A stretch of 64,000 nucleotides of DNA from Longimicrobiales bacterium (GTDB lineage: Bacteria; Gemmatimonadota; Gemmatimonadetes; Longimicrobiales; Gaopeijiaceae): assembly GCA_965203485.1 (NCBI GenBank), contig OZ241892.1, positions 1,024,001 through 1,088,000 on the forward strand, in the 5' to 3' direction. The notes beneath the pieces were generated by a model. It was not told the origin of the DNA. It made no database searches and worked only from the letters and a program-made list of their open reading frames with translations. Positions 1-38,071 of this stretch are shown here, piece after piece. Position 1 is the first letter of the stretch. Every line of letters begins with the position of its first letter. The position numbers and the translations under genes are program-made.

Positions 1-270
1 CGTCTTGGCCGACACCTCGCTTCCGCAAGAGCGTGGAGCGCCCTCCATCCGTTCCGATGCGGGCTACTGCCCGAATGGGCCAGCGAGGGCAGGATCACGC
101 CCAGCAGCGGCGCTCCAGGCGAGATTGACGGAATTGAAGTCACGGTGTGCAAACTCAGGGGCGAACGGGTGGTTTACTTCGAGACTGACGCCATGGGCAG
201 GGCGACCTTTATCTTTCGATGCGACTACGGTCCCAACTGCAAGCCACGCCCCCACCTGGTGAACATGTAA
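1..270 (+). CDS. Small Cys-rich secreted protein, paralog of 8101-8577 (5' end outside window; apparent 1-nt frameshift)
   Basis: Aligns with 8101-8577: PQERGAPSIRSDAGYCP / EWASEGRITPSSGAPGEIDGIEVTVCKLRGERVVYFETDAMGRATFIFRCDYGPNCKPRPHLVNM*. The C-run at 70-72 is CCC versus CCCC at 8385-8388, so either a real frameshift or a homopolymer error. Stop TAA 268-270 overlaps the next ATG (TAATG). Confidence 0.7.
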   Translation, partial: RLGRHLASARAWSALHPFRCGLLPEWASEGRITPSSGAPGEIDGIEVTVCKLRGERVVYFETDAMGRATFIFRCDYGPNCKPRPHLVNM

Positions 271-1427
271 TGCACGACCGTTCGAAACAAGGCGTGGTGA
301 TGCGCATTGGACGCGGCGTTGTTGTTGCATTGGCGGCTAGTGCGCCGGAGACGGCAGCACAACAGATTCTGGAAGTGGACATGGACGCCGGCCGAGAGCT
401 CGTCGGCGGGATCGAGTACCTGTTCGACTCCAGAACCGCGGCGGTGGACTACGACCGGCGGCTGGTGTTGGTCTCGGAGGCTGCTGATCCACTGGCCGTG
501 ACGGCCTGGTCCTTGGACGATGGTTCGGTGCGGGACGTCTTCGGGGGTGGCCGGCCGGGCGACGGCCCGGGCGAACTCGCAGGGGTGCAAGCGACGGCCG
601 TGGGGCCGGACGGCGTCTTCGTGGCGGGATTCGGCAGGGTGCTTCATTGGAGTTGGTCGGGCGCCCTTCTCCATCAATGGAGGCCGACGGCGCCGGGAGC
701 GCATGCCGTGTGCGCGTTGAACAGCCGTCCGGCGGTCCCGTTGCATCCGAGGGGTCTGGTATTTCGTGGCGACGACGGCGAGAGCGTTGCGTTGGGCGGG
801 GAAGCCAGCGCTCGGTTGGACTGGGACCGGAAGCGGCCTGACGATCTCCTCTCCAGCTATTCCGCCTACAGTTCAACCTTGATGACATGTGCGGACTCTG
901 CCGCATACGTGCTGCACAGCGCTGGCCACACGCTCACGGAATACAAGACGAGAGCGGAGCCGCGCTTGATCGCAATGCCCGCGGAGTTGGCGGAAGCGGC
1001 ACGCAAGAAGATGGAGTCTTCCACGCAGAACGCCTTTTCTTCTGGATACTCCCAACTGTTCTTGGCCGACGACGGTCGGCTCGTCGTCATGACGAAGGCG
1101 TACGGGTTGGCGGGAGCTGTGGTGGACCGGGCGACGGGTTGCTACGCGCTGTTGAAGAACAAGCCCGATCCGCCCGTCTGGAGCTACGTCGGGATGTTTG
1201 CCGACAGCCTCGTGACGCTGGAGGGCAGCCGGCAACCGACGACGATGGTTGTGGACGGGAAGGAACGCCGCGTGTTTGTGGGGGACGAGACGCACATCTT
1301 CGTGCGCCCGGTTCGGCCCGCCTCGGGCGTGCCCTGCGACCCCGGCGGCCTGGCGGCGTTCGTGGAGTTCGGCGATCTGGACGTGCCGGCCGTGGTCGCG
1401 CGCAGGTTGCCGGCCGAAGTGCGGTAG
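270..1427 (+). CDS. Secreted beta-propeller protein (6-bladed/NHL-like, GDGPGE motif), cassette copy 1
   Basis: GRPGDGPGELAG motif, beta-rich, signal-like N-terminus (alternative start ATG 300). Strongly similar to 8579-9625, but the C-terminus is extended by foreign sequence after PASGVPC. Confidence 0.75.
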   Translation: MHDRSKQGVVMRIGRGVVVALAASAPETAAQQILEVDMDAGRELVGGIEYLFDSRTAAVDYDRRLVLVSEAADPLAVTAWSLDDGSVRDVFGGGRPGDGPGELAGVQATAVGPDGVFVAGFGRVLHWSWSGALLHQWRPTAPGAHAVCALNSRPAVPLHPRGLVFRGDDGESVALGGEASARLDWDRKRPDDLLSSYSAYSSTLMTCADSAAYVLHSAGHTLTEYKTRAEPRLIAMPAELAEAARKKMESSTQNAFSSGYSQLFLADDGRLVVMTKAYGLAGAVVDRATGCYALLKNKPDPPVWSYVGMFADSLVTLEGSRQPTTMVVDGKERRVFVGDETHIFVRPVRPASGVPCDPGGLAAFVEFGDLDVPAVVARRLPAEVR

Positions 1428-1984
1428 CGAGCGTGTCGACGGGCGCTCCCCTTGCGTGGGCTCGCCGGTCCGTGGACGCCGTGCGGATCAGGGCCCCGGC
1501 TTTGCGGGCGGTCGGCGTTGCGATCCTCTTGGGCGGCCTTTCGTGGCGACCTTGGCCGTGGCTGGCTCGGCGCTTTGGGGCTGGACGATGCTCTGGTCCT
1601 ACGTGGAGCAGGCCGCGGCCCGTCGGGGTCGCGCGGCCGGCGTCCCCGGTCCCCTCGTCTCTCGCCCGCGAGACGGAGTTCCCGGCCGGGTCGCGCGGCC
1701 CCGCCGGGGGCTCCGCTCGACGGGGCTTTCGGCGGCCCTTCCGGAGCCGCCGCCGCCCGAACGGCGGCCACCGGCGGCGCCGCGGAAGTCGAATCTCGCA
1801 AAAACGCTTGTTCAGCAACGTGAATTGGCGTTTTTCGCCCCCGTGGCGAGGCGTTCTCCGTGCCCCGCAATTTGCCAATTGCGGATCGATTGCTCAACTT
1901 GCTTGGTCCGTGACGGAGAGGTGCGGATCGAGAGTGAAGCGCCGGGGGCGGCCCGCAAGGGACCCGTCGGCAGTCGCGGGAAAG
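1247..1984 (+). repeat. ~740 bp direct duplication, copy 1 (copy 2 at 6031-6771)
   Basis: Near-identical sequence from GGTTGTGGACGGGAAGG to CAGTCGCGGGAAAG at both positions. Copy 2 starts exactly at the IS3 end. Confidence 0.95.
1872..1900 (+). promoter_or_regulatory. sigma70-like promoter TTGCCA-N17-CAACTT (duplicate of 6659-6687)
   Basis: 17-bp spacer. Homologous to TTGCCA-N17-TATAGT at 12921-12949. The same CAACTT -10 occurs upstream of rplU. Confidence 0.5.
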
Positions 1985-2025
1985 AAGACTCGTCCTTTCG
2001 TCTCTCATCGACAGGAACTCACGCC

Positions 2026-2394
2026 ATGAACGACAGACAGCGCCGACCCTCCCAACATGCGTTCGCCAGACTGTCTTCGGCGGCCTTCCACGCTGGCTTT
2101 CGCGGAATGCTCGCCGCCGCCAAGACGCGTCACTTAAGCCGGGTGATGGCCTGGACGAAACGAGTCGTCTTGGGTTGGGCCTTGATCATCATTCTTGGTG
2201 GTACCGGCGTCCTGATTGCAACCGAGAGATTACCTGGCGACCAAAAGGTATGTGCAACTTTTTGTCCCACGGACCCAAGTAGCTTCTGTTTGTTTCTTGG
2301 CCACGGCGCCTCCGGAACTTGCAGTCGCGAGGCCTGCTCAATGGCACCATTTATCTTCCCAACAACCATTACATGCGATCTAGCCTTGCGATAG
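2026..2394 (+). CDS. Secreted 6-Cys peptide precursor (alternative start ATG 2146)
   Basis: RBS-like ACAGGAAC upstream. Hydrophobic signal MAWTKRVVLGWALIIILGGTGVLIA, then KVCATFCPTDPSSFCLFLGHGASGTCSREACSMAPFIFPTTITCDLALR with 6 Cys. The N-terminus from ATG 2026 is homologous to that of 8101-8577. Confidence 0.7.
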   Translation: MNDRQRRPSQHAFARLSSAAFHAGFRGMLAAAKTRHLSRVMAWTKRVVLGWALIIILGGTGVLIATERLPGDQKVCATFCPTDPSSFCLFLGHGASGTCSREACSMAPFIFPTTITCDLALR

Positions 2395-2437
2395 AGCTGC
2401 GCCCGGATTCTCGAATCGGCAACGGTCCAACAGCTTT

Positions 2438-2750
2438 GGCTCTTCGCCTGATGTGGTGGGGAAGGACAGGGGACGGGGACGGAACGGGGATGGCACGGGG
2501 CACGGCGGGTCAGTGCCGGGCGAGGCACAGACAGAGGTCGAGGCCGCCGAGGTGGAAGAGAATGGCCGCGGCGAAGCGGTCCTGGTTGGGAACCCACGAC
2601 TCCGGGCCTGATCGCTTGGATGCGGCTGTTGGCGCCCTCGGCCGGGCCGTTGGTGGCGTTCAGCACGACGGCGTTGACGATGCCCGCAGGTGTGTCCGGA
2701 CCATCGCCGCCGCCTCCTCGACCGGCCCGAGTCCGAAGGCCGACGCCCAT
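2438..2750 (-). mobile_element. ISL3-family remnant (3' end of transposase plus terminal IR)
   Basis: IR GGCTCTTCGCCTGATGTGGTGGG at 2438. The minus strand encodes GIVNAVVLNATNGPAEGANSRIQAI...DRFAAAILFHLGGLDL across a frameshift, the typical ISL3 transposase C-terminus. Confidence 0.8.
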
Positions 2751-2816
2751 TGCAACCCCGTTACTCCTCGCTGGTCGAGACACTGTTCTTTTCATTGCGT
2801 TTTATGAGGTCTGAGA

Positions 2817-4727
2817 TTGTCAGTCACTCGTCTTGAGAATGTCGCTAAATATGCCACTTATGGCTTAATTGCAGTGACATCGCTGCTGGTGCTGGTGCTT
2901 CTCGGGCGTCGACAAGATGTGGTCGTCACTGAATTCGAAGACATGCCTGCGCCAGTTTATATACCTTTTTGGCGAGATATTGCCGATCTTGGTATAGCAA
3001 TGAACGATGACGGTTCTGCAGATGTAACGGTCATCATTTTTTTCGACCCTCAATGTCCGATCTGTCGGTCATTACATCGCCAGACGATTAAGCCTTTGTT
3101 ATCGGAGACGATGTGGGACGATGTGGAATTTGTCTACGTTGGATATCCGCTTGAGTATTATGAACATTCGAATATTGCAGTGCGCTATTCTATATGTGTA
3201 GCATCCCTTGGCGATTTTCCATCGTGGATGGACAATCTCTATGAGAAGCAAGATTATATCGGAAACAGAAATTGGAGATTATTTGCAAAAGATGTGGGAA
3301 TCAAAAATACAGATAAATTGGAGGAATGTATAAAAGAAGAATCTACAACACGGCAAATTCAAGATATGCTAACCTTTGGTGAAAAAATTGACATACATGG
3401 TGTCCCTGCCATAATTATAGATGGTTGGAAATATCAATACACACCATCGGATAGCTCGCTTCGTGAGATTCTTCATGTTGCATTGGGCAACACTGAACGA
3501 AAATCAGAACCGCATCCAACGTCAAGCGATTCTCTCTTTTCGATACCTTTGATACATTCGAAGATGGAACTGCAAATTGGCAACGAACATGACGTCTTAT
3601 GGACATTGCAGACTGTTGAGGATATAGTAATCGGCGATGACGGACGTGTGTTGGTTTCGCAACCGGGGATTCCAGAAATTCGGGTCTTTGGGCATGATGG
3701 CGAGATCATGGCGACCATCGGCCGCATGGGCGATGGACCTGGAGAGTTTGCGAGCATCGACGCCATGACATGGCAAAATGGAAAAATTATTGTAAATGAC
3801 AATCAACTACTGCGCACTAGCGTTTTTGAACAAGACGGCACTTTTCTGGAATCCAAGCAATGGCTCGTCGACCTGACGCCAACTCATCATGGACGGTTTT
3901 CATTTTTCCCCAATTCGCCGCGTGTCGTTTTCCCAGACGGAACCGGCATCGTCAGGCCGAACATCCTAGCTTTGCCGGACAGACCGGCACACGGGATAAA
4001 CCGCGTGGAGGATCGTGTGCCCTTCTTGAAGATTGACGCAGATGGACGCGTTGTCGACACGCTTGCGTGGGAAGAGACCACGGCGACTGTGTTGACAATG
4101 GAACGACGACAGGCAATGCACTCGATCGTGTCTCCTTTTGGCGAGAACAAGCGGACCACGGTGACGAGCAAGGGAGGCATCGTGGAGGCAAGCGTGAGCC
4201 ACGGGCATGATGGAAGACGTGCGATGAACGCCATTCGAATATGGGCACTTGATCCGACGGGCGATACAGCATGGATTCGAGAATACGAATATCGACCTAT
4301 ACCGGCAACACGGGAGCTAGCGAAGTCGCTGGTCCAAGATGCCGTAGTTTTTTCAGGAGATCCTCAGCATCAACCCTCGGCTGAGATCTTTTATGACGAG
4401 CTTGTAAGGAGAGGAGCGATCAGAGACGATCTGCCGGCATTTTCAGATCTCCATGTCGGCCAGGACGACATCATATGGTTGCGGAGAGATGTGAATTTGA
4501 CGTCGGCTGAATACGCCATCTTGGACATGCTCGGAAACGTCAGAGGAACGGTGCAACTTCCCAGGCGACATCGCGTGACGGCGAGCCGCGACGACGTCGT
4601 GTACGCCGTTGCGGAAGGCGCATTGGGCGTTCCCGTGCTGTTCCGGTACAGCATTGAGATGCCTGAAGCCTTCAAGAGCGCGTGGCAGTCAGAACGTGCT
4701 GGAAGATCGACAAGAGAGCGGAATTGA
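2817..4727 (+). CDS. Membrane-anchored DsbA/thioredoxin-fold domain fused to a GDGPGE beta-propeller
   Basis: N-terminal TM helix, FFDPQCPIC (CxxC), cis-Pro loop HGVPAIIIDG, then IGRMGDGPGEF propeller. Visibly more AT-rich than the flanking DNA. Confidence 0.85.
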   Translation: MSVTRLENVAKYATYGLIAVTSLLVLVLLGRRQDVVVTEFEDMPAPVYIPFWRDIADLGIAMNDDGSADVTVIIFFDPQCPICRSLHRQTIKPLLSETMWDDVEFVYVGYPLEYYEHSNIAVRYSICVASLGDFPSWMDNLYEKQDYIGNRNWRLFAKDVGIKNTDKLEECIKEESTTRQIQDMLTFGEKIDIHGVPAIIIDGWKYQYTPSDSSLREILHVALGNTERKSEPHPTSSDSLFSIPLIHSKMELQIGNEHDVLWTLQTVEDIVIGDDGRVLVSQPGIPEIRVFGHDGEIMATIGRMGDGPGEFASIDAMTWQNGKIIVNDNQLLRTSVFEQDGTFLESKQWLVDLTPTHHGRFSFFPNSPRVVFPDGTGIVRPNILALPDRPAHGINRVEDRVPFLKIDADGRVVDTLAWEETTATVLTMERRQAMHSIVSPFGENKRTTVTSKGGIVEASVSHGHDGRRAMNAIRIWALDPTGDTAWIREYEYRPIPATRELAKSLVQDAVVFSGDPQHQPSAEIFYDELVRRGAIRDDLPAFSDLHVGQDDIIWLRRDVNLTSAEYAILDMLGNVRGTVQLPRRHRVTASRDDVVYAVAEGALGVPVLFRYSIEMPEAFKSAWQSERAGRSTRERN

Positions 4728-4886
4728 TCCGATGAGCACGAGCCAAGGAACTGAAACGGTGGAGTTGACCCGGTATGGTGGACGGGCAAGGATCTTGGGT
4801 TCAGGTAGTGCGATGTGAAACATGACTTTGGGAAGGACGGAGGCGCAAGGGCGCCGAACGGCCTCGTGTCGAGGGGGTCGGTGCAC

Positions 4887-5660
4887 CTACGCGACCGCAC
4901 GCTTGCGCTCGAAGCCGGCGGGGATTCGCAGTCGAGCGCCGAGAGTCGGCGCCGCGAGTTGTAGAAGCCTTCGATGAAGGCGAAGACGGCGCGCCGGGCT
5001 TCGGCCGGACTTGTTGAACTGGCAACGGTCGAGCAACTCGCATTCCAACGTGGCGAAGAAGCTCTCGCACATCGCGTTGTCGTAGGCGTCGCCCACCGAG
5101 CCCGTCGAGCGACGCACGCCGGGCTTCCTGCACCGCTCGCCGAACGCCGAGGACGTGTACTGCGACCCCTGATCCGAATGATGGATCACGGTCTCTGGAC
5201 AGCGGTTCTCGACGGCCATGGCGAGCGCGCGCTCGACGAGTTCGCCGCGCAGGTGCGTCTCCATGGCCCAGCCGACGACGCGGCGGCTCCAGGCGTCGAC
5301 GACGACGGCCAGGTAGAGCCATCCGGCCCCGGCCGACACGTGCGTGATGTCGGCGACCCAGAGCTGGTCGGGGCCTTCGGCGCTGAAGTCGCGCTCGACC
5401 AAGTCCGGAGCCGGGCGCGCGTCGGCGTCGCGCACCGTCAGCGCCACCTTGCGGCGCCTGCGGCTCGCGCCCTCGATGCCCTCCTCGCGCATGAGGCGGG
5501 CGACGCGCTTCGAACCGACGCGCTCGCCCCAGGCCGCGAGATCGGCGTGGATGCGCGGCCGACTCGCTTCCCAGCTACGGCGCACCGAGACGCGCAACGC
5601 GTCGTCGCGCAACGCGCTCGCACATCGCGCGCACGGGAAACACGGCCCGGTGCGCTTTCA
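4887..5660 (-). pseudogene. IS3 OrfB DDE transposase, frameshifted/deleted
   Basis: WVADITHV, HHSDQGSQYTS and DNAMCESFF motifs are present. Homology breaks near the N-terminus and after ELLDRCQF. Confidence 0.8.
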
Positions 5661-5972
5661 CGAACTCGAACCCTCTCCGGGAATCGAGCCGCTCTCCCGA
5701 GCGAACCAGGCCGCGGCTTTTTTTAGGATGTCGCGCTCGAGGCGCAACTGCTTGTTCTCCCGCTTCAGGCGGCGCAACTCGTCCCGCTCGCGCGTCGTCG
5801 TCCCGTCGTCGCGACGGCCCTCGTCGAGATCGGCCTGCTCGACCCAGTTGCGGATCGTCGGCGCCGACGGCTCGAACTCACGCGCCAGCGCCTCCGGCGA
5901 CCGGCCCGAACGCGCCAGATCCACCATTCGCCGCCGGTACTCCAGCGGGTACTGCTTGCGTTTCTTCGGCAT
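5658..5972 (-). CDS. IS3 OrfA (HTH)
   Basis: MPKKRKQYPLEYRRRMVDLARSG...LKRENKQLRLERDILKKAAAWF. Confidence 0.85.
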   Translation of the reverse strand: MPKKRKQYPLEYRRRMVDLARSGRSPEALAREFEPSAPTIRNWVEQADLDEGRRDDGTTTRERDELRRLKRENKQLRLERDILKKAAAWFARESGSIPGEGSSS

Positions 5973-6030
5973 CGTGGACTCCTCCTCGTCCCGAAAGATT
6001 GAACGTGTCCACCATGCCGGGGCAACTCCA

Positions 6031-6771
6031 GGTTGTGGACGGGAAGGAACGCCGCGTGTTTGTGGGGGACGAGACGCACATCTTCGTGCGCCCGGTTCGG
6101 CCCGCCTCGGGCGTGCCCTGCGACCCCGGCGGCCTGGCGGCGTTCGTGGAGTTCGGCGATCTGGACGTGCCGGCCGTGGTCGCGCGCAGGTTGCCGGCCG
6201 AAGTGCGGTAGCGAGCGTGTCGACGGGCGCTCCCCTTGCGTGGGCTCGCCGGTCCGTGGACGCCGCGCGGATCAGGGCCCCGGCTTTGCGGGCGGTCGGC
6301 GTTGCGATCCTCTTGGGCGGCCTTTCGTGGCGACCTTGGCCGTGGCTGGCTCGGCGCTTTGGGGCTGGACGATGCTCTGGTCCTACGTGGAGCAGGCCGC
6401 GGCCCGTCGGGGTCGCGCGGCCGGCGTCTCCGGTCCCCTCGTCTCTCGCCCGCGAGACGGAGTTCCCGGCCGGGTCGCGCGGCCCAGCCGGGGGCTCCGC
6501 TCGACGGGGCTTCGGCGGCCCTTCCGGAGCCGCCGCCGCCCGAACGGCGGCCACCGGCGGCGCCGCGGAAGTCACGCGAATCTCGCAAAAACGCTTGTTC
6601 AGCAACGTGAATTGGCGTTTTTCGCCCCCGTGGCGAGGCGTTCTCCGTGCGCCGCAATTTGCCAATTGCGGATCGATTGCTCAACTTGCTTGGTCCGTGA
6701 CGGAGAGGTGCGGATCGAGAGTGAAGCGCCGGGGGCGGCCCGCAAGGGACCCGTCGGCAGTCGCGGGAAAG
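6031..6771 (+). repeat. ~740 bp direct duplication, copy 2 (propeller 3' end, spacer, RNA promoter)
   Basis: Matches 1247-1984. Confidence 0.95.
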
Positions 6772-7164
6772 CCGGAAGCCGGACAGGCTTCGCGCACAAG
6801 GGGAGGGGAGTCCCGTCAGGGACGACCGGCCCTGGACGGCGAGTCTTCCGGAAGTCGGCAGCGCCGGGGAGGCCGGGCGTCGCGTTGCGAGACGCAGGCG
6901 GTGCGGTTCCACGGCGAGCGCGGCATCCCGGTTTCGGCGGGAGCCGCGACGGTTGCAAGGTCGCTGGACGCAACCGGAGTCCCCGGGAACGGGGGACGGC
7001 CCGAGCCGCGGAGAGCGCCGGAGACGGCGAAGGAAGCGGGGAGGGAGAAGAGCACGGAGGACCGTGCCGCTGCACACGGCGGCGCCGAAACGGAGCCCTC
7101 CCGCTCGCCAGCGAGATTGAGCCCCCGGCCGGGTGGTGTGCCTCCCGCCGGGGGCTCTTTTTTT
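6693..7164 (+). ncRNA. Diverged second copy of the putative large structured RNA
   Basis: Colinear with 12955-13421. Same hairpins (CCC-GCAA-GGG, GCGTT-GCGA-GACGC, CCCCG-GGAA-CGGGG, CGCCG-GAGA-CGGCG, GCACGG-AGGA-CCGTGC), promoter at 6659-6687 and terminator at 7119-7164. Confidence 0.55.
7119..7164 (+). terminator. Intrinsic terminator
   Basis: GAGCCCCCGGC...GCCGGGGGCTC stem followed by T7. Confidence 0.85.
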
Positions 7165-7395
7165 GCGTGCGTTGCCCGTCTGGTCGCCGCGCGTTGTCCG
7201 TCCGCCGGCGGGTTACATTAAACGGCTTGGCTCGAGCCGGTCCTTGGAACCGAACGCGGGGCGGTTCCGTAGTGGAGCGTCCGAAAGCGGCGGGCCGCAC
7301 GTCCCCTTCAACCCGGTCTTCCCCGTGCGGGTTCCCAAACGACCGGCAACACTCGGAGCGCCGCCCTCCTCCTGGGACGGCGGCGAGCGCAACCC

Positions 7396-7647
7396 ATGAC
7401 CGAACCAAAGGAATCCGCCGAGGCCGAGGCCGGCCCGGACTCCCAGACCAGACGACGATTCGACCCGAACGACATCTCTCCGGAGTTCGTTCACGACAAC
7501 TACGGCCTTGAAGAGGCGCTTTGGTTCCTCGCCGGTAGCCCCGGCGGCGACGGGCGCGCCGCGGCGTGGTTTCTCGCCTACGTTGCGGCGTGGCTGGGCG
7601 TGGGTGCGGCCGGCATCCGCGCCGTAGCCGAGCGCCGGGCCACGTAG
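7396..7647 (+). pseudogene. Chimeric ORF: first ~37 codons of an rpsA paralog fused to an unrelated hydrophobic fragment
   Basis: RFDPNDISPEFVHDNYG matches S1 N-terminus RFDPDDISPEFVHDTYG (13639). The upstream leader is also homologous. Confidence 0.75.
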
Positions 7648-7675
7648 GTGCTCCTGCCGTCGCCCGAAAGCGGAT

Positions 7676-7704
7676 TTGACACGCAATGACCGATTGATTA
7701 CCTT
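7676..7704 (+). promoter_or_regulatory. Strong sigma70-like promoter TTGACA-N17-TACCTT
   Basis: Consensus -35, 17-bp spacer, TAnnnT -10. Points toward the peptide/propeller cassette at 8101. Confidence 0.6.
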
Positions 7705-7719
7705 GCCGTAAGATATACA

Positions 7720-8066
7720 GGCTCTTCCCCTGTTTCGGTGGGCGTCGTAGGATGGACAGGAGTGGCGGCGTGACTCTGGGAGCGAGGAGAGCGGATGGAG
7801 ATGCGGGAGTGGGTGGAGCGGCTGATGGGTCTGGGGCCGGAGTGGCGGATCGAGCGGGTGGACGAGGATTCGGAGCGGCAGGACGCGCGGGTGGCGCTGG
7901 CGCGCGAGGCGGGTTCGGCGTTGCGGTGTCCGGAGTGCGGGCGGGCGTGTCCGGGTTGCGGCGGGAGTGGCGGGGGCTGGACGCATGGGGATACAAGACG
8001 TTCGTGGTGTACGACGTGCCTCGGGTGGAATGTCCCGAGCACGGGGTGGTGACGACGCGGGTGCCG
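7720..8066 (+). mobile_element. ISL3-family remnant (left IR plus transposase N-terminal zinc finger)
   Basis: IR GGCTCTTCCCCTGTTTCGGTGGGCG. Encodes LRCPECGRACPG / REWRGLDAWGYKTFVVYDVPRVECPEHGVVTTRVP (frameshifted). Confidence 0.85.
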
Positions 8067-8100
8067 TCTCTCATCTCTCCTCGACAGGGAACTCCCGCCC

Positions 8101-8577
8101 ATGAGTGACAGATACCGACTCTCTCAGTTTCTGTTTGCCGGATTGCTTTCGGCGGCTTTCCAGGCTGGCGTTGCCCCGGCGGCAACTGGAGCCCTTCAAT
8201 CCCCCTCTTCGTTCTTCGTAGGCGCGACGGAAGCGTATGGTGACGTAGGACAAGTCGGTGGTGCGGACGATTGGATGGCGGCCACAAAGGACTTCGTCGC
8301 CGGCGAGCAGCGCGCCCGCACCGAAGACGTTGCGCCCCCGCAAGAGTGTGGAGCGCCGTCCATCCGTTCCGATGCCGCCTACTGCCCCGAATGGGCCAGT
8401 AAGAGCAGGATCACGCCCAGTAGCGGCGCTCCAGGCGAGATTGACGGAGTCGAAATCACGGCGTGCAGGCTCAGAGGCCAGAAAGTGGTTTACATCGAAC
8501 ACCTCTGGTTCGATACCTTTGCTGTCTGGGAATGCGACTACGGCCCATGTGGAACCCGCTCTCACATTTCGCACTGA
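8101..8577 (+). CDS. Small secreted Cys-rich protein (158 aa)
   Basis: Signal-like N-terminus (MSDRYRLSQFLFAGLLSAAFQAGVAPA), 5 Cys, C-terminal CDYGPC motif. Paralog of 1-270. The propeller ATG follows 1 nt after the stop. Confidence 0.8.
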   Translation: MSDRYRLSQFLFAGLLSAAFQAGVAPAATGALQSPSSFFVGATEAYGDVGQVGGADDWMAATKDFVAGEQRARTEDVAPPQECGAPSIRSDAAYCPEWASKSRITPSSGAPGEIDGVEITACRLRGQKVVYIEHLWFDTFAVWECDYGPCGTRSHISH

Positions 8578-8578
8578 C

Positions 8579-9625
8579 ATGCGCATTTGGAGTGGCGTTG
8601 CTGTTGCGTTGGCCACTGGCGTGCCGGATGGATCGACGCAACAGATTCTGGAAGTGGACATGGATGCCGGCCGGGAGCTCGTCGGCGGGATCGAGTACCT
8701 GTTCGACTCCAGGACTGCGGTAGTGGACTATGGTCGGCGGCTGGTGATGGTCTCGGAGGCTGCCGATCCATTGGCCGTGACGGCCTACTCGCTGGACGAC
8801 GGTTCGGTGCAAGGCATCTTCGGAGGCGGCCAGCTGGGCGACGGGCCCGGCGAACTCACGCACTTGGAGGCAGTGGCCGTTGGATCAGACGGCGTCTTCG
8901 TGGCCGGAAGAGGCAGGGTGCTCCACTGGAGTTGGTCGGGCGTCCTTCTCCATCGATGGAGGCCGACCGCACCGGGAACGAACGCTCTATGCGCATTGAA
9001 CGGCCGTCCCGCCGTTCCGTTGCAGGACAAGGGGGTGGTGTTCCGTGGCGACGACGGCGAGAGCGTTGCGTTGGGCGGAGAAGCCCGATCCGAATTGGAC
9101 TGGTCCGCGGCCTCTAGGCGCGATGACCTTCTCGATATCTTTACCGCCTACGGTCAAGCCAAGGTGGCATGTGCTGATTCGGCGGCATATGTGCTGGCCG
9201 GCATGAACCATGTGCTCACGGAGTACAAGACGGGAGCGGAGCCGCGCTTGGTCGCGATGCCCGCAGAGTTGGTGGAAGCGGCACGCAAGAGAATGGAAGA
9301 ATCCAGCCAGAACGCCTTTTATCCTGGGTACGAGACCCTGTTCCTGGCCGACGACGGTCGGCTTGTCGTCACGACGTTGGCGTACGGGCTGGCGGGAGCG
9401 GTCGTGGACCGGAAGACGGGCTGTTACGCACTGTTGAAGAACAAGCCCAATCCGCCCGCATGGAGCTACGTCGGGATGTTCGCCGACAGCCTCGTGACGC
9501 TGGAGGGCAGCCGACAACCGACGACGATGGTTTTGGACGGAAAGGAACGTCGCGTGTTTGTATCGGACGAGACGCACATCTTCGTGCGCCCGGTTCGGCC
9601 CGCATCGGGCCAGCCCTGTACGTAG
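8579..9625 (+). CDS. Secreted beta-propeller protein (GDGPGE motif), cassette copy 2
   Basis: MRIWSGVAVALATG...GQLGDGPGEL...RPASGQPCT*. Paralog of 270-1427. Confidence 0.8.
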   Translation: MRIWSGVAVALATGVPDGSTQQILEVDMDAGRELVGGIEYLFDSRTAVVDYGRRLVMVSEAADPLAVTAYSLDDGSVQGIFGGGQLGDGPGELTHLEAVAVGSDGVFVAGRGRVLHWSWSGVLLHRWRPTAPGTNALCALNGRPAVPLQDKGVVFRGDDGESVALGGEARSELDWSAASRRDDLLDIFTAYGQAKVACADSAAYVLAGMNHVLTEYKTGAEPRLVAMPAELVEAARKRMEESSQNAFYPGYETLFLADDGRLVVTTLAYGLAGAVVDRKTGCYALLKNKPNPPAWSYVGMFADSLVTLEGSRQPTTMVLDGKERRVFVSDETHIFVRPVRPASGQPCT

Positions 9626-9724
9626 CGGGACGCTCTTCAACGCGGCGCACCGTTGCGTTGTGAGACTGTCTGGAGGGAGCAAGGTTGCGAAACGTTATGG
9701 AACTCGACGAGTTGCACATGCCAA

Positions 9725-10385
9725 CCGTTCCGTCTGGGAAAGCGACTACGACCCATGTGGAACTCGCCCTCACATTTCGCACTGACATGCGCATTTGGAG
9801 TGGCGTTGCTGTTGCGTTGGCCACTGGCGTGCCGGAGGGAGCGACGCAACAGATTCTGGCAGTGGACATGGATGCCGGGCGAGAGGTCGGCCGCACCGGG
9901 AACGAAGGCTCTTTGCGCATTGAACGGCCGTCTCGCCGTCCCGTTGCAGGAGAATGGGGTGGTGTTCCGTGGCGACGCCGGCGAGAGCGTTGCATTGAGC
10001 GGAGAAGCCCGATCCGAATTGGACTGGTCCGTGGCCTCTAGGCGCTGTGACCTTCTCGATATCTCTATCGTCTACGGTCAAGCCAAGGTGGCATGTGCTG
10101 ATTCGACGGCATATGTGTTGGCCGGCACGGACCACGTGCTCACGGAGTACAAGACGGGAGCGGAGCCGCGCTTGGTCGCGATGCCCGCAGAGTTGGTGGA
10201 AGCCGCGCGCAAGAGAATGGAACAACCCAGCGGGAATGCCTTTTATCCTGGGTACGAGGCCCTTCCTGGCCGACGACGGTCGGCTCGTCATCTTGTACGT
10301 TGGCGTACGGATTGGCCGGAGCGGTCATGGACCGGACCATGGGCTGTTACGCGCTGGACAAGCCCAATTCCGCGCCCGTATGGAG
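9725..10385 (+). pseudogene. Decayed third peptide/propeller cassette
   Basis: Peptide tail VWESDYDPCGTRPHISH* ends at 9785. The propeller starts at ATG 9787 with a large internal deletion near 9885 and later frameshifts. Confidence 0.85.
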
Positions 10386-10561
10386 CCACGGCGCGCGCGT
10401 CCCATTCGGCCATGTACGCGTCCCGGTGGGCGTTGCATCGTTTTGGTAGACAGCGACCGACGCGGTTCCTCTCTGCGATCGGGAGCGACCCGAGCCCGTC
10501 CGTGCGGGGACGCCGGGTGACGATTACGCTGGGCGGAAGGTAGCCCGCTGACACCGGAGGA

Positions 10562-10978
10562 GTGCCGATGAACTTCGAGAATTGGCTTGGGACGCTGACC
10601 ACCGTCGCGATCATGTGCGGCGCGATGCTTGCCTTGGGGCGGTGGCTCCGGACGCAGACGGCGGATCAGATCGCCGTCCTCAAGGTGTCGATGGACCAGC
10701 AGTTTGCCGTGGTGGACCAGCGCTTCGCTGCCGTGGACCAGCGCTTCATTGCCGTGGACCAGCGCTTCGCCTCCATCAAGGAATCCATGGACCGGATGTC
10801 GCGGGAGAACAAGGAGGAGCACGCGGACATCCGGCGGAGCATCCAAGAGGCCACTCGGCAAGTGCTGGGGGTCATGGACCGGCGTTTCGAGGACACTGGC
10901 AAGCGGATGGACGAAATGAGCAAGCGCATCGACGACCTGCGCTCCCACGTCGATGCCGCCGGAGGGAGGGCGGCTTGA
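10562..10978 (+). CDS. Small TM-anchored coiled-coil protein with VDQRFxA heptad repeats
   Basis: GGAGG RBS, N-terminal TM helix, 21-bp tandem repeat GTGGACCAGCGCTTC at ~10690-10770. Confidence 0.75.
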   Translation: MPMNFENWLGTLTTVAIMCGAMLALGRWLRTQTADQIAVLKVSMDQQFAVVDQRFAAVDQRFIAVDQRFASIKESMDRMSRENKEEHADIRRSIQEATRQVLGVMDRRFEDTGKRMDEMSKRIDDLRSHVDAAGGRAA

Positions 10979-11259: not shown

Positions 11260-11610
11260 CTACGGCGCCACGCCGAACAGCACCAGCGGGACCGCCGGCG
11301 TGCTCCTCCCCTGCCGGATCAGGTTGTAGAGCTCCCCTTCGTAGTACCCCGGTCCGGAGGACATCTCCGCCTGGAGTTCCTTCATCGGCAGAATCTCGAC
11401 GCCCACGTCGATCTTGTCGCCGACGAAAAACGCCATGTGCTTGACGAAGATGTCGAACGCCACAAATGCATATTTGCCGAACTGCACTTCGACAGCCACT
11501 CGTTGCTTGACGTAGTCGGTCTGATTGTACGAATAGATCGGTAGTTCGAAGCGATGGACCATCATCCATTCCAGGCCGTTCAGATGGGAGTATCGCTCAA
11601 CAATGCGCAC
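11260..11610 (-). pseudogene. BglII/BstYI-family restriction endonuclease, internally deleted
   Basis: YSHLNGLE N-terminus joined to SYNQTDYVKQRVAVEVQFGKY...EMSSGPGYYEGE. Only 116 aa, shorter than the ~200 aa expected for this family. Confidence 0.75.
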
Positions 11611-11612
11611 GG

Positions 11613-12490
11613 CTAATGGCCCCCTCCGGCCAAGGAGGGATCGTATATCGGTTTGTGCATGGGGCGGGTGCGCAACACGCCGGCGTCCAGGTTACGAACG
11701 CGCTGACGGGCGATCTCGACGTACTCGGCGACCACGTCGCAGCCGAAGGCGGCGCGTCCGTGCTTCCGAGCAGCCACCAACGACGACCCAACGCCCATGT
11801 AGGGGTCAAGGACGGCGTTGCCCTGCTCGGTCATGGACAAGACCAGCCGCTCCACGAGTTCGACGGGAAACTGACACGGATGCATCGTCTTCTCGACGTG
11901 GTTGGCCTTTACGTTCGGGATGTCCGAGACGTCCGAGGGATTCTTTCCCAACGGGTTTCCCGACCGCTTGCCCCTGTTCGGCCCCTTGAAGTACTTCTTG
12001 CCCGGATACTTAGAGGGGATCCGAACGGGATCAACGTCGAAGTAGTAATCGTCCGACGTCGTCAACCACAATATCGTCTCGTATCGCCCGGAAAACCGCT
12101 TTGTGCAGTGCAGTCCATGGCCGAAATGCCAGACAATGCGATTGCGCAGTCGCAACCCATGGGACTTGAACACGTCGTACAGCACAATGTCCAACGGAAC
12201 ACCTCGCGGCCGCGCACGTGGTTGCCCACCTGCCAGCAAAGCGATCCCCGCGAATCAAGAACTCGGACGCATTCGGCGATTGTCGCCGCCTGTTCTTCCA
12301 AGTACCGTTCGAGGCTTGTGCGCGTCTCGTATGATTTTCCGATGTTGTAGGGAGGAGAAGTGACGACTAGATGCATCGAGTCGCTGGGCAACGTTGCGAG
12401 AAAGTCCAAGTTGTCGGCGCATTCGATTCTCACGGCTAGGTCGGGGTTGGGGCCGTTCGCGATGTCGGCGCCGAGCAAGTATTGGGTCAA
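11613..12490 (-). pseudogene. N4/N6 DNA methyltransferase (beta class), frameshifted near 12196
   Basis: TSPPYN motif IV in one frame, HPCQFP and LDPYMGVGS in the next. Split at GTGTTCCGTTG (one C short). TTG start with a GGAGAG RBS. Confidence 0.8.
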
Positions 12491-12920
12491 TCGTGTCTCT
12501 CCGGTTGGAGCGTCTCGAAAACATCGGAAGGAATGCGCGAACGGTACCAAACGGCCAGGGGCGGGTCAAGGCGGCCGGTCGAATGGAGCGGCGAGTCGCC
12601 AAGACGGGCCGGTCTGCGTGCCGGGCGTGCGCGCGGGGGAGGGCAACGCCGGTCCACCACGAGGCGAGCCGCGAAGGGCGCCGTGGGCGGCGATCGTCAA
12701 CGAGCGCGAGGCCAGGCGGGCGCCGTCGTCGGCCAAACGGGAAACCGAGCCCGTGACGCGAGGAGGGCGTGGCAGGCGTTGCGTGGCGGCTGCCGGGACG
12801 CGGCGGGCTCGCGGCCGCCGGCCCGTCGCCTGCCGAATCGCGGGGATGGGGCGAGGCGTCCCTTCATCCAGCGAGCGAGTTCGCGCGGTGGCCCTCGCGC
12901 GGCTGCCCGTCGCCCTGGAT

Positions 12921-12949
12921 TTGCCATCTGCGAATCGATTCGTTATAGT
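12921..12949 (+). promoter_or_regulatory. sigma70 promoter TTGCCA-N17-TATAGT driving the putative ncRNA
   Basis: Near-consensus hexamers with a 17-bp spacer, in an AT-rich patch. Confidence 0.75.
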
Positions 12950-12954
12950 TCCTA

Positions 12955-13421
12955 GCCCGGCGACCGAGGGCGCGGATCGAGAGTGACGCGCCGGGGGCGG
13001 CCCGCGAGGGAAGCCTCGGCAGTCGCCGGACCACGGGAGCCGGAGGGCTTCAGGGAAGGGGGAGGGCGGTCCGAGAGGAACGACCGGCCCCGGAAGGGAG
13101 TCCTTCGGAACTCGGACGCGCCGAGGAGGCCGCGAGCAGCGTTGCGAGACGCGGGGAGCGGGTTCCACGGCGAGCGCGGCGCCCCGATTCGGCGGGAGCC
13201 GCGACGGTTGCAAGGTCGCTGGACGCAACCGGAGTCCCCGGGAACGGGGGCGGCCCGGACCGCGGAGAACGCCGGAGACGGCGGAGGAGGCGGGACGGGA
13301 GAAGAGCACGGAGGACCGTGCCGTCGCACACGGCGGCGCCGAAACGGAACCCTCCCGCTCGCCAGCGAGACGGAGCCCCCGGCCGGGCGGTGTGCCTCCC
13401 GCCGGGGGCTCTTCTTTTTTT
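12955..13421 (+). ncRNA. Putative ~465-nt multi-hairpin structured RNA (unassigned family)
   Basis: Bounded by promoter and terminator, with many GNRA/UUCG-capped stems. Conserved in a diverged paralog that has indels, so no conserved ORF. Lacks RNase P (GAGGAAAGUCC) and tmRNA (T-loop/CCA) signatures. Confidence 0.65.
13373..13421 (+). terminator. Intrinsic terminator
   Basis: GAGCCCCCGGC/GCCGGGGGCTC stem followed by TTCTTTTTTT. Confidence 0.85.
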
Positions 13422-13439
13422 GCGCCTTGTTCGCGCCGT

Positions 13440-13638
13440 CGGGTTACATTTGACGGCTTGCTCGTTGCCGGTCCCTTGGAACCGAAGGCGGGTCGGTTCC
13501 GTAAGTGTCCGAAGGCGCTTGGCCGCACATCCCCCCCCCCCCCCCCCCCTCAACCCGGTCTCCCCCGCGCGGGAATCCAACGGACCGGCGAGAAACACCC
13601 GGAGCGCCGCCCTCCCCGGAAGGCGGCGAGCGCAACCC
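13440..13638 (+). promoter_or_regulatory. rpsA promoter/structured 5' leader containing a C19 tract
   Basis: TACATT -10-like element at 13445-13450. Hairpins GGAACCG/CGGTTCC, CCGGTC/GACCGG and CGCCGCC/GGCGGCG are also found in the paralog at 7210-7395. Confidence 0.55.
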
Positions 13639-15828
13639 ATGACCGAGACAAGGGGTCCCGCTGGGGCCGGCGCGCGCCGGTCCCGGCCCGCACCGCGATT
13701 CGACCCGGACGACATCTCTCCGGAGTTCGTCCACGACACCTACGGCGAGGAAGTCCTCGACATCTCGAGCGACGCCTTCGAGGCGATGCTCGCCGAGCAC
13801 CAGACCGCGCGGGGCGACATCCGCGAAGGGGAGATCGTCAATGCCCGGGTTCTCCGGGTGACCGACGCGACGGTGATCCTCGAGTTCGGCTTCAAGAGCG
13901 AGGGCGCGGTCTCCATCGACGAGTTCAAGGACTCGGACGGCGTGGAGCCGGGCCAGGAAGTCGAAGTTCTGCTGGAGAGCCTGGAAGACGACGACGGCGT
14001 GGTCGTCCTTTCCAAGAAGAAGGCCGACTTCCTGCGCGTCTGGGAGCTGATCCGCGACGCCTACGAGAACGACCGGCCGGTCAGCGGTCTCCTCACCCGC
14101 AAGATCAAGGGCGGCGTGACGGTGGACATCATGGGGGTGGACGCCTTCCTTCCCGGTTCGCAGATCGCCCTTCGGCGGGTGCCCAACATCGAGGACCGCA
14201 TCGGGGAGACCTACGACTTCAAGATCATCAAGCTCAACAAGCGCCGCCGCAACATCGTCGTCTCGCGCCGGGTCATCCTGGAGCAGGAGCGCAAGGCGAA
14301 GCGCTCGACGCTGGTCAAGGAGCTGCTGAAGGGCCAGGTCCGGGAAGGGGTCGTCAAGAACATCACCGACTTCGGCGCCTTCGTGGATCTGGGCGGCCTG
14401 GACGGCCTGCTTCACATCACCGACATGTCGTGGGGCCGCGTGGGCCACCCGTCCGAAGTGGTGGACATCGGTGCGACCCTGGACGTCAAGGTGCTGGACG
14501 TCGACTGGAACCGCGAGCGCATCTCGTTGGGGCTCAAGCAGCTCCTCCCGTATCCGTGGAACGACATCGCCGACCGCTACCCGGTGGGCGCGCGCGTGCG
14601 GGGCAAGGTCGTCTCGATCACGAACTACGGCGCGTTCGTGGAGTTGCAGAGGGGCGTCGAAGGGCTCGTGCACATTTCCGAGATGTCGTGGACGAGGAAC
14701 GTGCGCCATCCCTCCAAGCTGGTGTCGGTGGGCGACGAGATCGAAGCGGTGGTCCTGCGCGTGGACCAGAAGGAAGAGAAGATCTCGCTGGGCATGAAGC
14801 AGACGGAAGAGGACCCGTGGCTCGCCTTGCCGCAGAAGCGCCCGCCGGGCACGCGCCTGTCGGGGACGGTCCGCAACCTCACGACGTACGGCGCGTTCGT
14901 CGAGATCGAGCCGGGGATCGACGGCTTGGTCCACGTGTCCGACATGAGCTGGACGAAGCACGTGGAGCACCCGTCGGAAGTGGTCCGCAAGGGTAGCCAG
15001 ATCGAAGTGATGGTCCTCGAGGTGGACTCGGACAAGAAGCGGGTGTCGCTCGGCGTCAAGCAGCTCGCCGACGATCCGTGGCCCGATCTGGTGGTGCGGT
15101 TCTCGGCCGGGGTGCAGCTGGACGCGACCGTGGTTCGAGTGCGCGACAAGGGCGTGCTCGTCAACTTGGGCGACGACGTGGAGGGCTTCGTGCCGGCCGC
15201 TCGCGCGGGCGTCGACTCGGGCGTGCTCGGCGAGCACTTCCGGGCGGGCGAAACCGTGGCCGTGCGGGTCGTGACGGCCGACGCCGGAGAACGCCGGATC
15301 GACCTTGAAGTCCTCGAGGCCCCGGAGCGGCGCAAGGCCGGTCCCGCTGGGGACGCCGCGGGAGACGACGAGGCGGCGGAGGAGGCCGGGACCGGGAAGA
15401 CGGCGTCCGAGCGCAAGGACGGGGAACCGGAAGAAGCCGTTGCGGGCGGAGAAGGCCGTGAGGGCGACGCGACCGCTCCCGTTCCCGAGGATTCGGAGCC
15501 GGAAGGAGCGGCCGCGGACGGAAAGGGCCGTGAAGACGGCAAGACCGAGTCGGCTCCTGAGGATTCGGAGCCGGAGTCCGAGACCGACGTTGCGCCCGCG
15601 CCCCTGGCCGACGAGCCGGAGTCCGAGGCCGAAGCTGCGGCGGTCCCGGAGGTCGGCGAGCCCGGGAGGCCCGAGACGGACGCCGCGGCCGATCCCCATC
15701 CGCCTGCTCCCGAGGATGCCGAGCCCGGCGGTGGGACCGCCGAAGCCGCCGAGAACTCCCCCGAGGCCGACGACGGCTCCGGTCGGCAGGGAGAGGCCGA
15801 CGCCCCCGCCGGCGAGCGCGGCGGCTAG
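13639..15828 (+). CDS. rpsA: 30S ribosomal protein S1 with long acidic C-terminal tail
   Basis: Repeated S1 domains (FGAFVDLGGLDGLLHITDMSW, YGAFVELQRGVEGLVHISEMSW). Confidence 0.97.
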   Translation: MTETRGPAGAGARRSRPAPRFDPDDISPEFVHDTYGEEVLDISSDAFEAMLAEHQTARGDIREGEIVNARVLRVTDATVILEFGFKSEGAVSIDEFKDSDGVEPGQEVEVLLESLEDDDGVVVLSKKKADFLRVWELIRDAYENDRPVSGLLTRKIKGGVTVDIMGVDAFLPGSQIALRRVPNIEDRIGETYDFKIIKLNKRRRNIVVSRRVILEQERKAKRSTLVKELLKGQVREGVVKNITDFGAFVDLGGLDGLLHITDMSWGRVGHPSEVVDIGATLDVKVLDVDWNRERISLGLKQLLPYPWNDIADRYPVGARVRGKVVSITNYGAFVELQRGVEGLVHISEMSWTRNVRHPSKLVSVGDEIEAVVLRVDQKEEKISLGMKQTEEDPWLALPQKRPPGTRLSGTVRNLTTYGAFVEIEPGIDGLVHVSDMSWTKHVEHPSEVVRKGSQIEVMVLEVDSDKKRVSLGVKQLADDPWPDLVVRFSAGVQLDATVVRVRDKGVLVNLGDDVEGFVPAARAGVDSGVLGEHFRAGETVAVRVVTADAGERRIDLEVLEAPERRKAGPAGDAAGDDEAAEEAGTGKTASERKDGEPEEAVAGGEGREGDATAPVPEDSEPEGAAADGKGREDGKTESAPEDSEPESETDVAPAPLADEPESEAEAAAVPEVGEPGRPETDAAADPHPPAPEDAEPGGGTAEAAENSPEADDGSGRQGEADAPAGERGG

Positions 15829-38049: not shown

Positions 38050-38071
38050 CCCCCCCCCCCCCCCTTTTTTT
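38050..38071 (+). repeat. C15-T7 homopolymer tract
   Basis: Direct count, between the rpmA stop and the giant gene. Confidence 0.9.

Follow-up and report, generated by a model that had tools for sequence, protein, structure and literature searches.

A small five-cysteine gene coupled to a predicted NHL-type propeller gene in Gemmatimonadota: a candidate antagonist and immunity pair with orphan propellers

When a small gene for a cysteine (Cys)-rich protein is followed almost without a gap by a gene for a beta-propeller, what do the two products do together, and why is the propeller so often found without its neighbour? This question is raised by a 64,000-nt stretch of DNA (hereafter the window, G000:C1:1024001-1088000) from a Longimicrobiales bacterium whose genome (G000) is a single contig of 3.56 Mb with 69% GC; DNA of the window is also carried by marine metagenomes among public runs. 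We call "family" the pair made of a small five-Cys gene and an NHL-type propeller gene that is found in copies 1 to 3 of the window. Our analysis revealed that the two genes are coupled well beyond this genome and that it is mainly the small gene that is lost, a pattern for which we tentatively propose that the small protein would be a secreted antagonist and the propeller its immunity protein.

The two-gene unit is present three times, at about the places that had been indicated by an earlier reading of the sequence alone (the sequence-only reading), and only copy 2 (8101-9625) is whole. As this reading had claimed, the small-gene stop overlaps the propeller start in copy 1 (268-272) and 1-nt gaps separate them in copies 2 (at 8578) and 3 (at 9786). 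The small gene of copy 1 begins outside the window, 246 nt upstream of it, and runs through three frames owing to two frameshifts, one near position 70 and one farther upstream; the single protein that had been read there joined two frames, since its YCP motif lies in a different frame from CxL, CDYGP and the terminal Cys. Positions 1-425 recur without a single difference or gap in a contig of run X3, which comes from another sample of the same study, two runs of another study show one gap within these positions, and a sister strain carries an intact 172-aa allele (P0055). Because of the identical DNA in X3 and of this sister allele, the small gene of copy 1 is a real pseudogene, and sequencing error as the cause of the frameshift near position 70 is ruled out by the X3 contig. 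Overall, the window contains one complete pair (copy 2), one dead small gene with a kept propeller (copy 1) and debris (copy 3, rightly described before as decayed). A 4-kb segmental duplicate of the surroundings of copy 1 lies at G000:C1:2814418-2818619, with its own small-gene frameshift and a propeller cut after 65 codons. A promoter scan of 7500-10600 returned no site, PADLOC matched none of four proteins, and no RNA run was found among the listed public runs that carry window DNA.

How general is the coupling? The small gene lies directly upstream of a family propeller or propeller fragment in 33 of 35 matches, and the pairing recurs across genera and in a second taxonomic family (G625, G588), which bears out the idea that exported Cys mini-proteins are genetically coupled to propellers. 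Most of these matches had built the profile; all six full-length small genes found outside it are paired. The two unpaired matches are a stub cut by an insertion sequence (IS) and a spurious hit, in G251, that was discarded. As a chance control, an open reading frame (ORF) with a signal peptide and four Cys preceded 9 of 400 random long ORFs of G000, so that the coupling is not a matter of chance. The family propeller occurs in 40 of the 401 genomes of the order, for which five candidates were scored per genome, and reaches 35 of 51 in one other genus; in the phylum, it occurs in 19 of 301 genomes, three of them in another taxonomic family.

The propeller is frequently found alone. The small-gene status was set by eye at 124 propeller loci (125 rows minus one duplicate piece). 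An intact small gene accompanies an intact propeller at 28 loci, a broken propeller at one and a contig edge at one, a broken small gene accompanies an intact propeller at 12 loci and a broken one at four, and the upstream DNA is unknown at two. No small gene stands upstream at the other 76 loci, whose propellers are intact (n = 55), broken (n = 18) or at an edge (n = 3). The sequence-only reading would have been undermined if propellers usually lacked an upstream Cys-rich ORF, and these 76 loci partly do so; they argue against an obligate ligand/receptor or client/chaperone relationship and for a toxin/immunity one. Among 20 further propeller N-termini, six are preceded by a small gene. All candidates were scored in the three genomes of the genus that consist of one contig, and six broken small genes adjoin intact propellers there, compared to no case of the reverse, despite a propeller gene about 2.5 times as long as the small gene. 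On a quick tree of 97 rows, 25 changes are needed for the lone state, at least 20 of them forced by supported branches; lone propellers thus arose many times, and one clade of about 13 rows is lone throughout. Ratios of nonsynonymous to synonymous substitution rates (dN/dS) are similar between lone sisters (0.21-0.49, 13 pairs; in two of these, the DNA upstream of one member is unknown) and between paired-propeller sisters (0.21-0.38, seven pairs): lone propellers are under purifying selection. Ten near-complete genomes were chosen for their lone propellers, and eight of them gave no match to the small-gene profile, which overlooks stubs and distant members. Tandem runs of propellers also occur, as do 3′ stubs of small genes next to propellers (copy 3, L007, L021, L093 and L098), most of which lack the variable hairpin described below and look like decay.

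Where both genes are kept, the small protein diverges faster, its core being 47-81% identical where propellers are 72-92% identical. Divergence of the two is correlated (Mantel 0.39, reached in 0 of 2000 permutations) and the nearest neighbour is shared in 16 of 29 pairs. The correlation foreseen by the sequence-only reading is thus present, and its attribution to co-diversification does not follow; we rejected it as proof of co-evolution since linkage alone predicts it. The copy of G001 combines a linker like that of copy 2 with a hairpin and a propeller like those of copy 1, which indicates an exchange of linkers among copies in which hairpin and propeller stay associated, and here too adjacency alone would be sufficient.

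Reading upstream of the propellers yielded an alignment of 33 small proteins (A5) of 110-210 aa that share a signal peptide, an acidic linker, C1, C2, C3-x-L, a hairpin and C4-x-Y-G-x-C5. In 25 of 31 rows the mature protein has exactly five Cys, the other six being stubs, wrong starts or one seven-Cys member, so that the scaffold has five Cys and not four as first counted. Two internal disulfides would leave one Cys spare, and Sec export is predicted for both proteins of the pair. Structure was predicted, among small proteins, for that of the window only: copy 2 gave an all-beta model (predicted local distance difference test, pLDDT, 83; predicted template modelling score 0.60) with hairpin strands at 55-62 and 68-75. 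The hairpin spans 17-45 residues in the family, and between copies 1 and 2 its dN/dS is about 1.2, compared to about 0.3 for the scaffold; its 16-18 codons are too few to establish positive selection. Fold searches with this model gave nothing in Foldseek at E 0.001 and a best Z of 3.3, which is not proof of a new fold, Protein Data Bank sequence searches with small proteins gave only E values above 0.1, an Atlas search gave no usable match, and a metagenome scan gave 88 pattern matches of which none was confirmed. A disulfide frame that tolerates hairpins of 17-45 residues and of any chemistry would be a natural binding scaffold.

The propeller model, built from a 41-row alignment (pLDDT 88), is predicted to be of NHL type with six four-stranded blades. 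Its best fold match is the NHL domain of Brat (1q7f; Z 21.0, root-mean-square deviation, rmsd, 3.7, 261 aligned), followed among others by the PknD sensor (1rwi, Z 17.4), the enzyme propeller PAL (3fw0; Z 17.2, rmsd 4.2, 263 aligned) and the DUF4221 protein BVU_1028 (3s9j, Z 17.0). It shares with the NHL-repeat propellers 1q7f, 1rwi and 3s9j the predicted six-bladed binding-module fold and one GxGPGE-type blade, and differs from them by two helical insertions, four Cys conserved across 85 sequences, an identity of 8-17% and the lack of a Pfam match at cut-off (NHL PF01436 and DUF5128 PF17170, both intact window copies and 39 family members scanned). None of 85 propellers matched NCBIfam; the Atlas gave NHL/DUF5128 clusters at 0.93, and a profile search retrieved 155 representatives at E 0.001, 48 of them at 1e-30, with ordinary NHL proteins in the weak tail. 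Propellers of copies 1 and 2 are 78% identical (67 changes in 327), and the changes are clustered (13 in one 20-residue window, permutation p=0.0008), in agreement with the discrete patches noticed earlier, whose quoted sequences, like those of the loops, were confirmed. The variable patches are inter-blade insertions that vary family-wide; dN/dS is 0.33 overall and 0.62 in patch 171-197. The propeller of copy 1 has a 28-aa tail common to other propeller types of the genome. Lipobox-like N-termini were seen in three of 100 propellers, and nearly all propellers have a plain signal peptide. One family propeller (P0117; locus L119 of G304) is fused behind a BlaR1/M56 peptidase domain and followed by a second, lone propeller; this fusion fits a ligand-binding role of the propeller. 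Near C1:139000, 187000 and 1217000 of G000, other small exported genes with eight or four Cys precede NHL-type propellers.

Upstream DNA and signal peptide are shared by six full copies in G000 that carry three different Cys domains, an arrangement seen in this genus only. Two of these leaders and the copy of G001 have 17, 23 and 14 C directly behind the signal peptide, and all three are out of frame as assembled; only two of them belong to the five-Cys genes, the feature is restricted to the genus, and the window copies have no long homopolymer in their 5′ coding region. More generally, G000 contains 42 C/G runs of 14-30 nt, whereas the number of shorter runs declines steeply from 892 at 6 nt to zero at 12-13 nt; G001 and G002 are likewise rich in long runs. 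These 42 runs may constitute a genome-wide set of slippage switches, and slippage in the C-runs of the leaders would turn the genes on and off. The window itself has a run of 19 C at 13531, shortly before the gene for ribosomal protein S1, and another of 15 C at 38050.

What would such a pair be for? The reading that we tentatively favour is that of a secreted antagonist and an immunity propeller with orphan immunity copies, where binding, toxicity and protection are what we infer. The small five-Cys protein with its hypervariable hairpin would act against related bacteria, the propeller encoded right behind it would bind and neutralise it in the cell envelope, and cells that have lost the small gene would still retain or acquire propellers as protection against the variants of their neighbours, while expression of the small gene would be switched by C-run slippage. 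A protein that survives alone, is collected in tandem and lies behind a fast-changing exported gene fits an immunity protein. A more specific proposal is more doubtful: the small proteins would form a new class of disulfide-framed beta-hairpin bacteriocins, some of them C-run-switched, and exported NHL propellers would counter them and spread as orphan immunity genes. If true, this system would drive conflict between strains of uncultured marine Gemmatimonadota, and the large, unexplained expansion of NHL propellers and Cys mini-proteins in their genomes would receive a first function. The family offers dozens of natural cognate pairs for examining the antagonist/immunity idea, with lone propellers as built-in controls.

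Several observations weigh against this reading. The small protein has no Pfam, NCBIfam, toxin-domain or fold match, and its mature form is acidic in 30 of 31 cases, unlike typical bacteriocins, which are cationic. Aerolysin-type beta-pore formers carry an amphipathic, Ser/Thr-flanked insertion hairpin on a beta-sandwich, and a hairpin of similar look was seen at L086, L088, L089 and L109, with no sequence match for two of these. Hairpin tips are of mixed chemistry (15 of 42 hydrophobic and 11 of 42 acidic, one row being probably spurious), which makes a common membrane-pore mechanism unlikely; this chemistry and the acidic charge both speak against one simple pore mechanism, which was rejected as valid for all members. 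Long C-runs, whose length is possibly misread, precede only one or two of the 125 propeller loci. Most loci were gathered by best propeller score, which favours intact propellers, and 18 of the 76 lone propellers are broken. The small-gene profile has little sensitivity, as stubs in G002 and G196 escaped it and the genes of G625 and G588 obtain marginal scores, so that some genomes with lone propellers may hide divergent partners. G000 encodes at least 31 NHL-type propeller ORFs, 26 of which have no detected Cys neighbour; lone propellers are therefore normal in this genome. Lastly, immunity proteins are usually small according to the part of PMC4436062 available to us, and the family propeller, with about 350 aa and a signal peptide, is not.

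Is anything similar already known? The pair lies outside every curated family tested; its layout resembles that of polymorphic toxin/immunity loci, but its components are new. Neighbourhoods of Bacteroidota with NVEALA (PF14055) and DUF5128 propellers show a similar layout, in which the gene of a six-bladed propeller immediately follows that of a small, exported and Cys-rich protein. The proposed likeness to NVEALA did not extend beyond this layout: PF14055 matched none of 33 small-protein members, DUF5128 did not match the propellers, the small fold has five Cys and a long hairpin, and the propeller mostly lacks a lipobox. Thioredoxin-linked cassettes differ too, as no thioredoxin gene was seen beside the main pair. 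In the literature searched, which left subscription journals and supplements outside its coverage, there was no paper on NVEALA or DUF5128 and no description of the pair; the accessible part of PMC10434189 holds one table row naming a propeller. Polymorphic toxin systems, as described in the accessible parts of two papers (PMC4436062, PMC3482391), combine an exported gene and then its partner with orphan modules and polyimmunity loci. Tandem propellers, 3′ stubs and one leader on three Cys domains recall such loci: as far as these parts go, the common points are an exported gene directly followed by its partner (33 of 35, for the order and not the function), one N-terminal region on different C-terminal domains, stubs that accompany partner genes and tandem runs of partner genes. 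The present system differs by a disulfide-type protein of 110-210 aa without known toxin domain, by a partner that is an exported propeller of 350 aa, and by stubs that often lack the variable hairpin. Exported NHL propellers beside tiny Cys-rich genes are very common in Gemmatimonadota and we found no published function for them; in the present family, both proteins lack a curated family and the small one also lacks a fold match.

The propeller could instead be an autonomous exported protein for binding or adhesion, for example to a host or a matrix, with the small protein as an optional, losable cap, modulator or specificity subunit. We consider this unlikely yet worth serious attention: it predicts the same one-sided loss, and the 55 intact lone propellers, their purifying selection, the clade that is lone throughout, the NHL-type propellers of G000 (at least 31, most without Cys neighbour) and nearest folds that are NHL binding modules all agree with it. 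Taken alone, it leaves unexplained the faster divergence of the small protein (47-81% compared to 72-92%) and a pairing kept across two taxonomic families.

A strain-specific signal or identity tag received by the propeller, where lone propellers would hear the signals of neighbours, is rather improbable in our view. Nearly all propellers have a plain signal peptide (three of 100 being lipobox-like) and no output domain, and no conserved transducer was seen beside the pairs, no systematic search for one having been made; these points stand against the BlaR1/M56 fusion of one member, the correlated divergence, the mixed hairpin chemistry that suits recognition, and a one-sided loss that would be expected here as well. 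Less probable still is a propeller devoted to the folding, modification or assembly of the small protein, which would then be a precursor similar to ribosomally synthesised and post-translationally modified peptides or a fibre subunit disulfide-linked through its spare Cys. A conserved leader with a variable core, the odd number of Cys, the enzyme propellers such as PAL among the fold matches and the DsbA of the unit 4 described below are in line with it. However, such a factor should decay without its client, whereas lone propellers stay selected, including in genomes without small-gene match, and no protease or modifying enzyme was seen beside the pairs. Enzyme propellers of the PAL and Vgb lyase type have conserved catalytic or metal-binding His, and no His is conserved at 60% or more across the 85 propellers. 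Finally, neutral and currently functionless debris of IS-driven duplication accounts for much of the window (IS3, two ISL3 remnants, the 741-nt duplicate, broken copies 1 and 3) and is very improbable for the family, as it is contradicted by the intact copy 2, a scaffold dN/dS of about 0.3 in both genes and a presence in 40 genomes.

A fourth unit of the window (unit 4) combines a six-Cys peptide with a DsbA-propeller fusion, as had been proposed; the peptide is not wholly unrelated to the family, as then thought, since it shares the DNA of the family leader (82% over 1984-2100). The fusion matches Thioredoxin_4 (E 4e-18) and, just under cut-off, DUF5128 (E 8e-5), its propeller is of another type than that of the main pair, and an IS remnant separates it from the peptide gene. 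In G083, a homologous peptide (31% identity, E 6e-14) precedes a homologous fusion, and G000 has two more DsbA-propeller fusions (G000:C1:460200-462100 and G000:C1:140678), the first of them preceded by a small exported peptide with C-C-CC-C-C spacing, which we take to be knottin-like. One run carries an allele that skips 2938-3518 in frame and thereby lacks the DsbA part. Unit 4 is thus a separate, conserved, thioredoxin-linked module. Like the NHLRC2/SOQ1 thioredoxin-NHL fusions (6gc1 and 7djk, both fold matches), it joins a thioredoxin fold to a six-bladed propeller; unlike them, its domain is of DsbA type (Thioredoxin_4), it is bacterial and it is preceded by a six-Cys peptide.

Table 1. 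Coordinates of the features of the repeat region (positions in the window).
Feature	Position	Strand	Remarks
Copy 1 small five-Cys gene, 3′ part, pseudogene	1..270	+	Two frameshifts; intact sister allele P0055
Copy 1 propeller, intact, 385 aa	270..1427	+	Start overlaps small-gene stop
Unit 4 six-Cys peptide gene	2026..2394	+	Degenerate family leader, hydrophobic segment, different Cys domain
Remnant, one end of repeated ISL3-like element	2435..2757		blastn to same 1.4-kb repeat as 7720-8067
DsbA (CPIC)-DUF5128-like propeller fusion	2817..4727	+	Start uncertain, 2817 or 2943; first half low GC
IS3-family element, frameshifted	4760..6030	-	Eight further genome copies at 92%
Duplicate (98.8%) of 1247-1984, propeller 3′ end and downstream DNA	6031..6771	+	Contains a fourth propeller fragment (6031-6211), beside IS3
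ISL3-like 5′ remnant, directly upstream of copy 2	7720..8067	+	Zn_ribbon_ISL3 E 5e-5, just under cut-off
Copy 2 small protein, intact, 158 aa	8101..8577	+	Signal peptide, acidic linker, five Cys, all-beta core (predicted)
Short, interrupted C-run behind signal peptide, copy 2	8201..8205	+	
Hypervariable beta-hairpin, Cys3-Cys4	8467..8532	+	22 residues in copy 2
Copy 2 propeller, intact, 348 aa	8579..9625	+	Signal peptide without lipobox, four conserved Cys, predicted NHL-type six blades
Copy 3 small-gene 3′ stub	9729..9785	+	About 18 codons, Cys4 lost
Copy 3 propeller pseudogene	9787..10393	+	Internal deletion, frameshifts, truncated

The repeat region is scrambled by IS elements, with an IS3 element, two ISL3-like remnants and a 741-nt duplicate between the copies (Table 1). 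Beyond the window, the island extends upstream (L207, G000:C1:1016389-1022700). This part contains a leader-plus-C17 gene that has another Cys domain and comes with a propeller, a duplicate of the unit 4 peptide that is cut by an IS, and a helical peptide with four Cys that is accompanied by a propeller and by an ABC ATPase/permease pair. Elsewhere in the genome (L022, G000:C1:2324059-2324980), a broken family propeller lies directly behind a gene that is presumably sulfotransferase-like, judging from its motif. At 6657-7647 of the window, a copy (79%) of the segment that precedes the S1 gene (12919-13746) is fused to a copy of the 3′ end of an ABC permease gene; the fusion created a chimeric ORF of 83 codons and suggests foreign DNA or an old duplication. 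Downstream of copy 3, positions 10568-10978 encode a small membrane-anchored coiled-coil protein with short internal repeats, which has paralogs in the genome and matches no family above cut-off, and positions 11260-12550 carry genes for a BglII-type restriction endonuclease and for an N4/N6 methylase, both of which seem to be divided between two frames.

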